Of a DNA stretch of 16,764 nt, positions 1-16,073 are shown one piece after another. The DNA is from a virus. Its lineage: Duplodnaviria > Heunggongvirae > Uroviricota > Caudoviricetes. Position numbers and translations under genes: made by a program. How positions within the stretch are numbered: the first letter of the stretch is position 1; the number at the start of each line of letters is the position of its first letter. Location of the stretch: the IMG/VR virus record IMGVR_UViG_2684622772_000002. One strand, 5' to 3'. The notes under the pieces are model-generated. The model searched no databases. It was not told the DNA's origin and worked only from the letters and a program-made list of their open reading frames with translations.

Positions 1-2
1 GG

Positions 3-212
3 TTATCGCTCGCCACGGGAATATCTGCGGCAGCGGGCTTGTAATGGGTTAAGTGATAACAGATGTCTGGAAATATAGGGGCAAATCCAATCGTCGCCGT
101 ATTCCCGTATTAACAGAGACCGTAGCCCGACGGGGAACTCCTTCTGCGCGAGTGTGCGGGAATAATCAAAAACGATGCACACCGGGGTTACCGGGTACAC
201 ATATTTCATCAT
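3..212 (-). CDS. Hypothetical 69-aa protein, leftmost ORF of the leftward cassette upstream of cos
   Basis: Complete ORF with ATG at 212..210 and TAA stop at 5..3. The product has a mixed hydrophobic/aromatic composition, unlike the Arg-rich overlapping plus-strand ORF 53..256. No clear Shine-Dalgarno and no recognised motif. Confidence 0.3.
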   Translation of the reverse strand: MMKYVYPVTPVCIVFDYSRTLAQKEFPVGLRSLLIREYGDDWICPYISRHLLSLNPLQARCRRYSRGER

Positions 213-257
213 GCCAGCGAGTCCGGTTCTGGCACGGAAGAAACCGGACGTTATGAT

Positions 258-683
258 TTAGTGCGGAAATATTTGTGTAGTGTTCTGTATGTTCTCAGTA
301 AAGAGTAATGAATTATCAAAGGTATAGTAATACCTTTTGTTTTCGTGGATATTTGTAATCCATCTGAAAACCCCTGCTGTAGCAAGATTTTTCCTGTATT
401 CGTAAAATGATAACTCTCCTGATTTGAATCCTTTTAAGGTGGCTTCTATAAGGCATTTATTTTTTGAAAATCTTACATTTACAACCTTACCCTGTCCTTT
501 TATTAAAACCGTATTATCGTTTTCAAGAACAAGATGAATATTCTCTGTGGCTAAATAGTAAATGTAATGTGAGACATTGTGACGTTTTAGTTCAGAATAA
601 AACCAGTGATAGTTTAAATTATTTCGCACTTTATCGAATATTTGTTTAAAAATGGCAACCTGAGCCATTGTAGTACCTTCCAT
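258..683 (-). CDS. Hypothetical protein (141 aa, or 136 aa from the ATG at 668), AT-rich moron gene of unknown function
   Basis: Uninterrupted ORF in a segment that is conspicuously AT-rich by eye compared with the flanking phage DNA. It is antisense to the late operon. An AAGG Shine-Dalgarno-like element precedes the internal ATG at 668. The product is rich in Tyr/Asn/Lys, with no signal peptide and no motif I recognise. Confidence 0.55.
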
Positions 684-725
684 GTGATATGAGGGGGCGT
701 AGTCTGCACGATTATCTAAATTGCT

Positions 726-959
726 TCAATCTGGTCTAACCTGTTTTCTGAGCAATTCAGTAATGTCACTCTTTTCTTTGTTTGCTTCAGGCGAAACTCT
801 TTTTTCTGAGCACAGTCTCCGGCGGCAGGCTTCAATGACCCAGGCTGAGAAATTCCCGGACCCTTTTTGAACAAGAGCGATGTTAATTTGTTCAATCATT
901 TGGTTAGGAAAGCGGATGTTGCGGGTTGTTGTTCTGCGGGTTCTGTTCTTCGTTGACAT
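726..959 (-). CDS. Small ribbon-helix-helix-like protein (77 aa), resembling the YlcI/YnfO (DUF3950) proteins found next to terminase genes in E. coli lambdoid prophages
   Basis: ORF with ATG at 959..957. The Arg/Thr-rich basic N-terminus (MSTKNRTRRTTTRNIRFPNQ) followed by a predicted helix (MIEQINIALVQKGSGNFSAWVIEACRRRL) fits a beta-strand-helix-helix DNA-binding fold. The family assignment is from memory, not a search. Confidence 0.55.
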   Translation of the reverse strand: MSTKNRTRRTTTRNIRFPNQMIEQINIALVQKGSGNFSAWVIEACRRRLCSEKRVSPEANKEKSDITELLRKQVRPD

Positions 960-999
960 GAGGTTGCCCTGTATTCAGTGTCGCTGATTTGTATTGTCT

Positions 1000-1347
1000 G
1001 AAGTTGTTTTTACGTTAAGTTGATGCAGATCAATTAATACGATACCTGCGTCATAATTGATTATTTGACGTGGTTTGATGGCGTAGATGCACGTTGTGAC
1101 ATGTAGATGATAATTATTATCATTTTGCGGGTCCTTTCCGGCGATCCGACAGGTTACGGGGCGGAAGGCGCGCGGGTTTTCGCTATTTATGACAATTTTC
1201 CGGTTTAAGGCGTTTCCGTTCTTCTTCGCCGTAACCTAATGTTTTTATTTAAAACACCCCCTGAAAAGAAAGGAAACGACAGGTGCTGAAAACGGGCTTT
1301 TTGGCCTCTGTCGTTTCCTTTCTCTGTTTTTGTCCGTGGAATGAACA
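1000..1347 (+). promoter_or_regulatory. cos: cos region (cosQ-cosN-cosB), the DNA packaging and terminase recognition site
   Basis: Sequence 1000..1158 closely matches what I recall of the lambda right end (...GATCCGACAGGTTACG), and 1171..1347 matches the lambda left end (CGCGGGTTTTCGCTATTTATGA...), directly upstream of nu1. Exact boundaries of cosQ and the R/I1 elements are not resolved. Confidence 0.85.
1159..1170 (+). other. cosN: cosN 12-nt cohesive-end core, here GGGCGGAAGGCG
   Basis: Positioned between the conserved ...AGGTTACG and CGCGGGTTTTCGC... flanks. Lambda has GGGCGGCGACCT here; the window differs in the last 6 nt (see findings). Confidence 0.6.
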
Positions 1348-1867
1348 ATGGAAGTCAACAAAAAGCAGCTGGCTGACATTTTCGGTGCGAGTATCCGTAC
1401 CATTCAGAACTGGCAGGAACAGGGAATGCCCGTTCTGCGAGGCGGTGGCAAGGGTAATGAGGTGCTTTATGACTCTGCCGCCGTTATAAGATGGTATGCC
1501 GAAAGGGATGCTGAAATTGAGAACGAAAAGCTGCGCCGGGAAGTTGAAGAACTGCGGCAGGCCAGCGAGACAGATCTCCAGCCAGGGACTATTGAGTACG
1601 AACGCCATCGACTTACGCGTGCGCAGGCCGACGCACAGGAGCTGAAAAATGCCAGAGACTCCGCTGAAGTGGTGGAAACCGCATTCTGTACTTTCGTGCT
1701 GTCGCGGATCGCAGGTGAAATTGCCAGTATTCTCGACGGGATCCCCCTGTCGGTGCAGCGGCGTTTTCCGGAACTGGAAAACCGACATGTTGATTTCCTG
1801 AAACGGGATATCATCAAAGCCATGAACAAAGCAGCCGCGCTGGATGAACTGATACCGGGGTTGCTGA

Positions 1868-1893
<26 letters not shown>
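1348..1893 (+). CDS. nu1: Terminase small subunit (181 aa)
   Basis: Near-identical to lambda Nu1 (MEVNKKQLADIFGASIRTIQNWQEQGMPVLRGGGKGNEVLYDS...), same length, and its 3' end overlaps A as in lambda. Confidence 0.96.
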
Positions 1894-5574
<3,681 letters not shown>

Positions 5575-8358: not shown

Positions 8359-8757
8359 ATGACGAAAGATGAACTGATTGCCCGTCTTCAGGAGCTGGGT
8401 GAGCAATTGAACCGCGATGTCAGTTTGACGGGAACGAAAGAAGAACTGGCGCTTCGTGTGGCAGAGCTGGAAGAAGAGCTTGATGACACGGATGAAACTG
8501 CCGGTCAGGACACCCCTCTCAGCCGGGAAAATGTGCTGACCGGGCATGAAAATGAGGTGGTATCAGCGCAGCCGGATACCGTGATTCAGGATACGGCTGA
8601 ACTGGTCACGGTCGTGGCACTGGTGACGCTGCATACTGATGCACTTCACGCCACGCGGGATAAACCTGTGGCATTTGTGCTGCCGGGAACGGCGTTTCGT
8701 GTCTCTGCCGGTGTGGCAGCCGAAATGACAGAGCGCGGCCTGGCCAGAATGCAATAA
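8359..8757 (+). CDS. FI: Head assembly / DNA-packaging accessory protein (132 aa)
   Basis: From the ATG at 8359, MTKDELIARLQELGEQLNRDVSLTGTKEELALRVAELEEELDDTDETAGQDTPLSRENVL... matches lambda gpFI in length and sequence. The track start at 8320 is an extension. Confidence 0.93.
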   Translation: MTKDELIARLQELGEQLNRDVSLTGTKEELALRVAELEEELDDTDETAGQDTPLSRENVLTGHENEVVSAQPDTVIQDTAELVTVVALVTLHTDALHATRDKPVAFVLPGTAFRVSAGVAAEMTERGLARMQ

Positions 8758-14260: not shown

Positions 14261-14586
14261 AAACCTTCCGCTGGAAAGTGAAACCCGGTATGGATGTGGC
14301 TTCGGCCCCTTCTGTAAGAAAGGTGCGCTTTGGTGATGGCTATTCCCAGCGAGCGCCTGCCGGGCTGAATGCCAACCTGAAAACGTACAGCGTGACGCTT
14401 TCTGTCCCCCGTGAGGAGGCCATGGTACTGGAGTCGTTTCTGGAAGAGCACGGGGGCTGGAAAGCCTTTCTGTGGACGCCGCCTTATGAGTGGCGGCAGA
14501 TAAAGGTGACCTGCGCAAAATGGTCGTCGCGGGTCAGTATGCTGCGTGTTGAGTTCAGCGCAGAGTTTGAACAGGTGGTGAACTGA
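14257..14586 (+). CDS. M: Tail tip assembly protein (109 aa)
   Basis: Same length and position as lambda gpM (MKTFRWKVKPGMDVASAPSVRKVRFGDGYSQRAPAGLNANLKTYSVTLSVPREE...). Overlaps the H stop and the L start. Confidence 0.94.
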   Translation: MKTFRWKVKPGMDVASAPSVRKVRFGDGYSQRAPAGLNANLKTYSVTLSVPREEAMVLESFLEEHGGWKAFLWTPPYEWRQIKVTCAKWSSRVSMLRVEFSAEFEQVVN

Positions 14587-15171
14587 TGCAGGATATCCGG
14601 CAGGAAACACTGAATGAATGCACCCGTGCGGAGCAGTCGGCCAGCGTGGTGCTCTGGGAAATCGATCTGACAGAGGTCGGTGGAGAACGTTATTTTTTCT
14701 GTAATGAGCAGAACGAAAAAGGTGAGCCGGTCACCTGGCAGGGGCGACAGTATCAGCCGTATCCCATTCAGGGGAGTGGTTTTGAACTGAATGGCAAAGG
14801 CACCAGTACGCGCCCCACGCTGATGGTTTCTAACCTGTACGGTATGGTCACCGGGATGGCGGAAGATCTACAGAGTCTGGTCGGCGGAACGGTGGTCCGG
14901 CGTAAGGTTTACGCCCGTTTTCTGGATGCGGTGAACTTCGTCAACGGAAACAGTGACGCCGATCCGGAGCAGGAGGTGATCAGCCGCTGGCGCATTGAGC
15001 AGTGCAGCGAACTGAGCGCGGTGAGTGCCTCTTTTGTACTGTCCACGCCGACGGAAACAGATGGCGCTGTTTTTCCGGGACGTATCATGCTGGCCAACAC
15101 CTGCACCTGGACCTATCGCGGCGATGAGTGCGGTTATCACGGTCCGGCGGTCGCGGATGAATATGACCAGC
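14586..15171 (+). CDS. L: Tail tip assembly protein L, 3' end lost in the assembly gap
   Basis: MQDIRQETLNECTRAEQSASVVLWEIDLTEVGGERYFFCNEQNEKGEPVTWQGRQYQPYPIQGSGFELNGKG... matches lambda gpL for 195 residues up to ...GPAVADEYDQ, then runs into the N-run. About 37 codons are missing. Confidence 0.9.
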
Positions 15172-15455
15172 NNNNNNNNNNNNNNNNNNNNNNNNNNNNN
15201 NNNNNNNNNNNNNNNNNNNNNNNNNNNNNNNNNNNNNNNNNNNNNNNNNNNNNNNNNNNNNNNNNNNNNNNNNNNNNNNNNNNNNNNNNNNNNNNNNNNN
15301 NNNNNNNNNNNNNNNNNNNNNNNNNNNNNNNNNNNNNNNNNNNNNNNNNNNNNNNNNNNNNNNNNNNNNNNNNNNNNNNNNNNNNNNNNNNNNNNNNNNN
15401 NNNNNNNNNNNNNNNNNNNNNNNNNNNNNNNNNNNNNNNNNNNNNNNNNNNNNNN
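15172..15455. other. Assembly gap: run of 284 N
   Basis: Contiguous N characters in the sequence. They replace the end of L, the L-K spacer and the start of K. Confidence 0.99.
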
Positions 15456-16073
15456 CCGGAGGCGTATTTCCGTATGTCGCCGGAAGACTGGCTGCAGGCA
15501 GAGATGCAGGGTGAGATTGTGGCACTGGTCCACAGCCACCCCGGTGGTCTGCCCTGGCTGAGTGAGGCCGACCGGCGGCTGCAGGTGCAGAGTGATTTGC
15601 CGTGGTGGCTGGTCTGCCGGGGGGCGATTCACAAGTTCCGCTGTGTGCCACATCTTACCGGGCGGCGCTTTGAGCACGGGGTGACGGACTGTTACACGCT
15701 GTTCCGGGATGCTTACCATCTGGCGGGGATTGAGATGCCGGATTTTCATCGTGAGGATGACTGGTGGCGTCACGGTCAGAATCTCTATCTGGATAATCTG
15801 GAGGCCACAGGGCTGTATCAGGTGCCGTTGTCAGCGGCGCAGCCGGGCGATGTGCTGCTGTGCTGTTTTGGTTCATCGGTGCCGAATCATGCCGCCATTT
15901 ACTGTGGTGACGGCGAGCTGCTGCACCATATTCCTGAACAACTGAGCAAACGAGAGAGGTATACCGACAAATGGCAGCGACGCACACACTCCCTCTGGCG
16001 TCACCGGGCATGGCACGCATCTGCCTTTACGGGGATTTGCAACGATTTGGCCGCCGCATCGACCTTCGTGTGA
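15456..16073 (+). CDS. K: Tail tip protein K with JAMM/MPN and NlpC/P60-like motifs, 5' end lost in the gap
   Basis: ...SPEDWLQAEMQGEIVALVHSHPGGLPWLSEADRRLQVQSDLPWWLVCRG... matches lambda gpK from about residue 50 to its C-terminus. The HSH-x7-S-x2-D JAMM metalloprotease motif is present, and a Cys/His-containing region (VTDCYTLFRDAYH...) follows. Confidence 0.9.
   Translation, partial: PEAYFRMSPEDWLQAEMQGEIVALVHSHPGGLPWLSEADRRLQVQSDLPWWLVCRGAIHKFRCVPHLTGRRFEHGVTDCYTLFRDAYHLAGIEMPDFHREDDWWRHGQNLYLDNLEATGLYQVPLSAAQPGDVLLCCFGSSVPNHAAIYCGDGELLHHIPEQLSKRERYTDKWQRRTHSLWRHRAWHASAFTGICNDLAAASTFV

Follow-up and report, generated by a model that had tools for sequence, protein, structure and literature searches.

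Whether two small genes that lie side by side at the edge of a phage packaging module depend on each other, or share a site as independent neighbours, is the question raised by a 16,764-nucleotide (nt) stretch of viral DNA (IMG/VR record IMGVR_UViG_2684622772_000002; 'the window' denotes this whole stretch). The window represents the right end of a lambda-type prophage, in which an open reading frame (ORF) of 77 amino acids (aa) is located 42 nt upstream of a 141-aa ORF on the same strand, approximately 200 bp from cos and the terminase gene Nu1. An earlier note on this DNA had described this layout, the coordinates of which were confirmed (Table 1), and had proposed that the two ORFs constitute a regulator-effector or toxin-antitoxin (TA)-like pair. 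In the current analysis the two genes are identified as ynfO (DUF3950 family) and ydfO (DUF1398 family), and the reading we favour, with moderate confidence, is that of a ynfO-ydfO cassette of the type found in the Qin prophage of Escherichia coli K-12, i.e., two accessory genes that travel as a block and not an interdependent pair.

Identity of the two genes

Both ORFs are intact, start with ATG and are real genes rather than chance ORFs. Proteins identical to those of the window are encoded on approximately 1,000 contigs each. The 77-aa protein scores above cut-off against Pfam PF13132 (DUF3950; E=2e-20, 72.8 bits, cut-off 25) and NCBIfam NF041551 (YlcI_YnfO_N; 35.2 bits, cut-off 30), and also matches PHROG 949 (E=6e-33). 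With Nu1 confirmed as its neighbour, the resemblance to YlcI/YnfO-type proteins beside terminase genes, which had first been suggested from the letters alone, is borne out. K-12 YnfO is 96-97% identical to the window protein and has the same length and tail. The protein is basic, as had been noted for its N-terminus, with six lysine or arginine residues among the first 20 and an isoelectric point of 10.9. In DUF3950 proteins, near-invariant residues 1-52 are followed by a hypervariable C-terminal tail, in which frameshifts sometimes occur. Strong purifying selection acts on codons 1-50, the ratio of non-synonymous to synonymous divergence (dN/dS) being 0.03-0.10 between lambda-type and Stx-type copies, at a dS of 0.8-1.6. 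Homology with lambda breaks off at ynfO codon ~52, and the tail therefore belongs to the variable side; indeed, codons 53-77 represent a variable tail that is specific to the Qin-type arrangement. Few small genes of lambdoid phages are as constrained as DUF3950, which occupies a fixed place beside two unrelated packaging modules.

Phage lambda itself also has a YlcI-like ORF of 64 codons (NC_001416, positions 48,139-48,333, minus strand), which lies ~200 bp to the left of cosN. Its product shares 94.5% identity with residues 1-55 of the window protein, and purifying selection on it is strong. The ORF is unannotated in both NC_001416 and J02459, although other lambda-like records annotate it. 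It is conceivable, if improbable, that an Arc-like regulator which contributes to the biology of lambda has been missed here.

The 141-aa ORF encodes a DUF1398 protein that aligns over its full length with E. coli YdfO (E=1.4e-69; about 75-78% protein identity), for which a nuclear magnetic resonance (NMR) structure is available (PDB 2HH8). RefSeq homologues start at Met6 (window position 668), following a GGAAGG Shine-Dalgarno sequence, which would give a protein of 136 aa and a spacer of 57 nt. YdfO is a soluble alpha/beta protein of orphan fold, and was produced alone for the NMR work. No toxin-like fold or family match was found for DUF1398, and a PADLOC search with both proteins returned no significant defence-system match. 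Across the gene as a whole dN/dS is 0.1-0.5, with no sign of positive selection. PHROG 413 and several RefSeq phage records name DUF1398 'head protein' or 'envelope protein'; since no hydrophobic segment is present and the homologous protein was soluble when solved by NMR, these names are unsupported and look like propagated misannotation.

Both ynfO and ydfO are already known, annotated genes with uncharacterised functions: a 2024 survey of the y-ome lists the two as uncharacterised, and full-text literature searches returned no functional study of either the DUF3950 or the DUF1398 family. Overexpression of YdfO has been reported, in work cited in PMC4077768, to increase resistance to oxidative stress. 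For the window itself little changes, as it carries an annotated cassette present in nearly half of the complete E. coli genomes. DUF1398 is of wider interest as a part of the y-ome for which an orphan fold has been solved and for which control by the pyruvate sensor PdhR is conceivable.

Mosaic history and co-occurrence

The gene order in the window is that of K-12 Qin, namely ydfO, a 57-nt spacer, ynfO and the divergent nohA. The two genes have different histories, without co-divergence, since the window ynfO and the spacer are 98-99% identical to Qin at the nucleotide level (96-100% in each 50-nt segment), whereas identity falls to 58-66% in the centre of ydfO (window 400-560, residues ~55-95), with a dS of 0.67 over the whole gene. 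The central third of DUF1398 differs far more between alleles than do its ends or ynfO, dN and dS both being raised. As judged from the sequences, it resembles the product of old allelic recombination rather than of positive selection; diversifying selection in this centre was considered and rejected, dN/dS there being 0.17-0.47. The same residues, ~55-95, are also those with the lowest AlphaFold confidence. Furthermore, the two genes differ in G+C content, as had been pointed out against a co-evolved pair, with 44.4% for ynfO and 31.7% for the AT-rich ydfO, compared to 52.7% for Nu1 and 54.7% for the window.

In lambda and the DLP12 prophage the order is bor, ybcV/p78 (DUF1398), ybcW/p79 on the opposite strand, ylcI (DUF3950), cos and Nu1, so that the two families are represented ~540 nt apart with an opposite-strand gene (ybcW in DLP12) between them. 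The DUF1398 protein at this locus is 76% identical to that of the window and is accompanied by a different DUF3950 tail of 12 residues.

Window positions 1-1400 are covered to at least 80% in 2,446 of 5,426 complete E. coli genomes (about 45%). In E. coli, the 5' part of DUF3950 together with the cos-proximal spacer occurs at 8,695 places (3,936 genomes) and DUF1398 at 3,411 (2,717 genomes), which upholds the view of the small protein as the conserved occupant of this site. Among phage records, 155 encode DUF3950 compared to 43 that encode DUF1398. For example, phages of the Stx/HK97 type carry Rz, DUF3950 on the opposite strand, HNH, TerS and TerL with no DUF1398, and some Nu1-type prophages likewise carry DUF3950 without it.

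Co-occurrence was assessed in 319 IMG/VR loci sampled with four DUF3950 queries, a sample biased by the choice of queries, in which the downstream ORF was assignable in 262. DUF3950 is positioned left of Nu1/A in 97 loci and left of an HNH-Terminase_2 module in about 103. Where enough sequence was available, the 77-aa tail type is followed by DUF1398 in 97 of 98 loci, directly adjacent in 94, and the single exception has an apparent insertion sequence (IS) element at the DUF1398 position. None of the ~165 loci with other tail types has DUF1398; their downstream neighbours on the opposite strand encode Rz (48 loci), a TonB_C lipoprotein (30), PerC (9), BRO/Ant/Rha antirepressors or AlpA. Another cluster of co-directional ORFs was seen in 25 loci and probably represents spurious antisense frames, leaving DUF1398 as the sole recurrent credible co-directional gene downstream of DUF3950 among the 262 viral loci. 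The suggestion that the small protein represses whatever cargo lands next to it finds no support here, the other identified neighbours being convergent late or regulatory genes.

When one genome per species was scanned for DUF1398, DUF3950 was present upstream of nearly every cos-proximal copy with 70% identity or more for which sufficient upstream sequence was available; one locus of 71% identity lacked it. The diverged DUF1398 genes (53% identity or less), i.e., YcgX-type genes of Escherichia/Shigella and those of Citrobacter, Klebsiella, Kluyvera, Raoultella, Pseudocitrobacter and Salmonella diarizonae, lack DUF3950 within 4 kb in 34 of 34 cases and have no consistent small upstream ORF. 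The co-occurrence test proposed in the earlier note thus speaks against an obligate pair, whichever gene is taken as the starting point: DUF3950 mostly occurs without DUF1398 and diverged DUF1398 occurs without DUF3950, although linkage holds for the 77-aa tail type.

In the Escherichia locus examined, the YcgX-type chromosomal DUF1398 gene adjoins bluR, and in Kluyvera and in an unclassified Enterobacteriaceae metagenome-assembled genome a diverged DUF1398 gene adjoins a small ORF resembling YmgB/AriR by eye, which suggests that diverged DUF1398 is linked to the ycgZ-ymgABC stress/biofilm region rather than to phage packaging. As a separate observation, DUF3950 frequently runs convergently to genes of the antirepressor type (Ant, Rha, BRO-N, AntA/KilAC), PerC or AlpA, also in elements resembling phage-inducible chromosomal islands (PICI) where it does not lie beside a terminase gene; this convergence recalls the control of ant by Arc and Mnt in phage P22. 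Finally, numerous assemblies from unrelated taxa (e.g., Kitasatospora, Pseudomonas, Cohnella, Flavobacterium and Bradyrhizobium) contain short contigs, many of ~3.5 kb, with the exact sequence of the right end of lambda. These look like contamination with lambda control DNA, which inflates the apparent host range of both families.

These distributions bear directly on a type II TA-like or abortive-infection module, in which the YnfO tail would neutralise a DUF1398 toxin and the N-terminal domain would autorepress the operon. Such a module would account for a small, basic, ribbon-helix-helix (RHH)-like gene that precedes its neighbour in the same orientation at a short distance, for a conserved DNA-binding part followed by a hypervariable tail, as in RHH antitoxins, and for the near-complete linkage of the 77-aa tail type to an adjacent DUF1398 gene; the only compact structural matches of YnfO, to the RHH antitoxins MazE6/7 and ParD2 (see below), and a weak PHROG HicB-like match (E=0.055) point the same way. 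However, DUF3950 is mostly solo, DUF1398 stands alone at all 34 diverged loci with no consistent upstream partner, and the 76%-identical DUF1398 of lambda and DLP12 lies behind an opposite-strand gene and is accompanied by another tail. Moreover, co-divergence is absent (98-99% identity to Qin for ynfO against about 75-78% protein identity for ydfO), frameshifted DUF3950 tails occur in nature and, as indirect evidence, YdfO could be made alone for NMR and is reported to protect from oxidative stress when overexpressed. Together with the lack of a toxin-like fold, and with a spacer that holds a promoter-like site and a published PdhR box, these findings led us to set aside the TA-like pair, which we regard as very improbable; it keeps a small probability because of the linkage between tail and cargo and the rare fusion alleles described below. 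A related and similarly improbable proposal is that the 77-aa YnfO and DUF1398 form a two-component module in which the Qin-specific tail binds YdfO, in an antitoxin-like or partner-switch manner. If true, YnfO-YdfO would constitute a new TA or abortive-infection system under RHH control, placed where lambdoid prophages have their cos-proximal accessory genes.

Fold of YnfO, spacer signals and the weighing of readings

The earlier note had described the 77-aa protein as RHH-like, a call that is plausible. The motif R13-N-I-R-F-P18 aligns with FNLRWP of Arc and FNFRMP of Mnt, and AlphaFold predicts helices at residues 19-32 and 34-53 (predicted local distance difference test score ~90) with a one-residue break at Gly33 and an unstructured N-terminal arm. 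Compact structural superpositions were obtained solely with RHH antitoxins, i.e., MazE7 (2.6 A over 46 residues), MazE6 (2.3 A over 41 residues) and ParD2 (3.1 A over 46 residues). Sequence and profile comparisons gave no significant match: an hhalign comparison of DUF3950 with Arc and Mnt, the sequences of which were confirmed as Pfam Arc, returned the expected register at a non-significant level (probability 0.45%, E 0.13), a Pfam search of 33 DUF3950 members at E<=10 retrieved neither Arc nor any other RHH family, and PDB sequence and profile searches with DUF3950 gave no match. An Arc-like RHH fold for the N-terminal domain of YnfO is considered likely but unproven.

The two ORFs lie in the same frame, a single TGA apart, and 233-aa YnfO-YdfO fusion alleles (TGA->TGG) exist naturally, though rarely, on a few dozen contigs. 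Programmed read-through of the TGA as a conserved feature was considered and rejected, the in-frame arrangement being kept in only 37 of 80 close relatives and fusions being rare. No terminator-like site was found between ynfO and ydfO, so that transcriptional read-through from the former into the latter is possible. The spacer RNA fold is unremarkable (z -0.25). Promoter and operator signals were searched for, as the earlier note had proposed. A sigma-70 promoter-like site is present at the end of ynfO, which would drive DUF1398 alone; as such sites are not above chance in positions 1-1400 (4 found versus 2.5 +/- 1.6 expected), it is to be read as a consensus match only. Its -35 hexamer falls within a PdhR-box-like palindrome, AACAGGTTAGACCAGAT, that differs at 1 of 17 bases from AAcaGGTcagACCAgaT, the site in the ynfO/ydfO region of K-12 (PMC7660256). 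In that study genomic SELEX (systematic evolution of ligands by exponential enrichment) mapped a PdhR site to this region, and expression of ybcV (DLP12) was ~10-fold PdhR-dependent in K-12, in the sense of activation (PMC7660256). In positions 684-725 no significant repeat or operator was found.

A dedicated regulator-effector pair without toxin logic, in which YnfO would repress or activate ydfO through an operator in or near the spacer, is supported by the co-directional, adjacent position of two genes between which no terminator-like site was found, the tight linkage of the 77-aa tail type with DUF1398 and the joint conservation of spacer and ynfO. It is at odds with the absence of a significant repeat or operator in the spacer, and with the lambda/DLP12 DUF1398 genes, which have their own divergent, PdhR-controlled promoter region. 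In addition, since the N-terminal, DNA-reading part of YnfO is identical in phages without DUF1398, its target is unlikely to be specific to ydfO. We consider such a pair unlikely.

A third possibility is that DUF3950 serves the phage at the lysis/packaging junction and is not a repressor of the classical kind. It could bind near cos or the start of the packaging genes, or its leftward transcription could cause antisense interference with the late transcript; in a related version, it would exert Arc/Mnt-like control over nearby antirepressor genes. Its invariant position left of two unrelated packaging modules (97 Nu1/A and about 103 HNH-Terminase_2 loci), its unannotated presence in lambda ~200 bp from cosN and the frequency of convergent Ant, Rha or BRO antirepressor genes are consistent with such a role. 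Conversely, the lambda-type and Stx-type flanks share no common motif, a diverged homologue is located beside a primase gene in a PICI-like element whose annotated ±2.5 kb around it includes no packaging gene, and neither lambda nor Qin has an antirepressor at this position. A junction role therefore appears doubtful to us.

According to the cassette reading, ynfO keeps a constant place immediately to the left of the packaging module, and its transcription leads away from that module, antisense to the late operon. The 52-residue N-terminal domain of YnfO probably folds as an Arc/Mnt-like RHH dimer, the basic arm and the RNIRF strand of which may contact DNA, making YnfO a putative small transcription regulator that probably autoregulates its own leftward transcript. 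The 25-residue tail forms part of the variable, cargo-side module, and YdfO is an optional, AT-rich cargo at the site that elsewhere in Enterobacteriaceae stands alone. Besides any read-through from ynfO, ydfO probably has its own PdhR-linked promoter, and may be under PdhR control and expressed in the lysogen. That ylcI is transcribed in K-12 follows from its inclusion in an RNA-seq survey, which lists a convergent ybcW-ylcI transcript overlap.

Several observations weigh against this cassette reading. The 97 of 98 linkage of the 77-aa tail type to an adjacent DUF1398 gene, together with the rare natural fusion alleles, would fit an interaction between tail and YdfO. The evidence for the PdhR site is in vitro SELEX in K-12, and the window allele has one central substitution. 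No leftward sigma-70 promoter upstream of ynfO was found in positions 960-1157 at 9/12 matches. Lastly, an operator search through k-mers shared between lambda-type and Stx-type DUF3950 flanks gave chance 8-mers only.

Prophage context and comparison with known systems

Table 1. Features at the left end of the window (strand as + or -)
Feature	Position	Strand	Remarks
IS2 (IS3 family) copy, right end	1..89	+	Inserted just downstream of the DUF1398 gene
ydfO/ybcV-like gene, DUF1398	258..683	-	PF07166 E=3e-43; likely real start Met6 at 668
Spacer between ORFs	684..725	-	42 nt; ORFs in same frame, single TGA apart
Sigma-70 promoter-like site TAGACC-16-GATAAT	711..738	-	9/12 matches; would drive DUF1398 alone
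ynfO-like gene, YlcI/YnfO family (DUF3950)	726..959	-	PF13132, NF041551, PHROG 949; TGA stop at 726-728
PdhR-box-like palindrome	729..745	-	AACAGGTTAGACCAGAT, GGTnnnACC core; over last ynfO codons
ynfO start-to-cos spacer	960..1158		About 95-100% identical to lambda right end; includes cosQ-side sequence
cosN-equivalent 12-mer	1159..1170	+	GGGCGGAAGGCG in window, GGGCGGCGACCT in lambda; 5/12 bases differ, flanks conserved
Nu1, terminase small subunit	1348..1893	+	Pfam Phage_Nu1 E=2.4e-101; divergent from ynfO

Rightward of ynfO codon ~52 the window is collinear with lambda through cosQ, cosN, cosB, Nu1, terminase A and the head and tail genes, the start of ynfO being 389 nt from that of the divergent Nu1. 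A 13-nt inverted repeat (1029-1041 / 1049-1061) in the spacer between ynfO and cos is not above background. The altered cosN sequence recurs in 7 of the 57 closely related IMG/VR loci whose flanks are intact, and is therefore a natural minority allele. Homology with IS-free prophages begins at window position 90, and the IS2/prophage junction region is covered to at least 80% in 1 of 5,426 complete E. coli genomes, there in two pieces. An Rfam search of the whole window, with a relaxed threshold on positions 1-1400, returned no credible match.

The IS2 copy beside the pair, the altered cosN and the location of the K-12 copies in defective prophages could mean that both genes are decaying remnants of a cryptic prophage without current function. 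Yet both ORFs are intact, purifying selection acts on DUF3950 (dN/dS 0.03-0.10) and on DUF1398 (0.1-0.5), identical proteins are encoded on ~1,000 contigs each, and the genes occur in viable phages including lambda, so that decay is extremely improbable.

Away from this locus, a single 495-aa ORF at positions 14586-16073 combines Phage_tail_L, JAB and NlpC/P60 domains; it may be a fusion or a read-through artefact. In lambda, L and K are separate genes.

The closest relatives of the two genes are those of the K-12 prophages. YnfO of Qin and YlcI of DLP12 belong to the same family as the 77-aa protein and share its position and orientation beside nohA/Nu1, the window protein differing from Qin YnfO by point changes only, e.g., V30 for E30. 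Compared to YdfO (2HH8), YbcV and lambda p78, the window allele of DUF1398 differs most in residues ~55-95.

With Arc and Mnt of phage P22, YnfO has in common that it is a small, basic phage protein with an N-x-R-x-P motif and two (predicted) helices joined by a glycine-containing turn. In contrast to these, it shows no significant sequence or profile similarity to them and no operator was found for it, while its position is the lysis/packaging junction rather than the immI region of P22. The type II TA systems with RHH antitoxins (ParD/ParE, MazE6-7/MazF and CopG-type) resemble the pair in having a small RHH-like gene upstream on the same strand, the product of which has a conserved N-terminus and a variable tail. 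They differ in that ynfO and ydfO are neither obligately linked nor co-divergent, that the would-be toxin is of orphan fold and is also encoded without a partner, and that the spacer of 42-57 nt holds a promoter-like site. The spacer also contains a PdhR-like box and a Shine-Dalgarno sequence of its own, and lacks a terminator-like site.

The lambda morons bor and lom, accessory genes that are expressed in the lysogen, offer a further comparison. Unlike the Bor lipoprotein, the products of ynfO and ydfO carry no envelope signal. Like bor and lom, however, ynfO and ydfO are low-G+C, leftward accessory genes between Rz and cos that are optional among lambdoid phages. With respect to the features that define a moron, the DUF1398 gene is optional in its presence and low in G+C, no terminator was confirmed for it, and its candidate promoter consists of a consensus match together with the PdhR site known from the literature.

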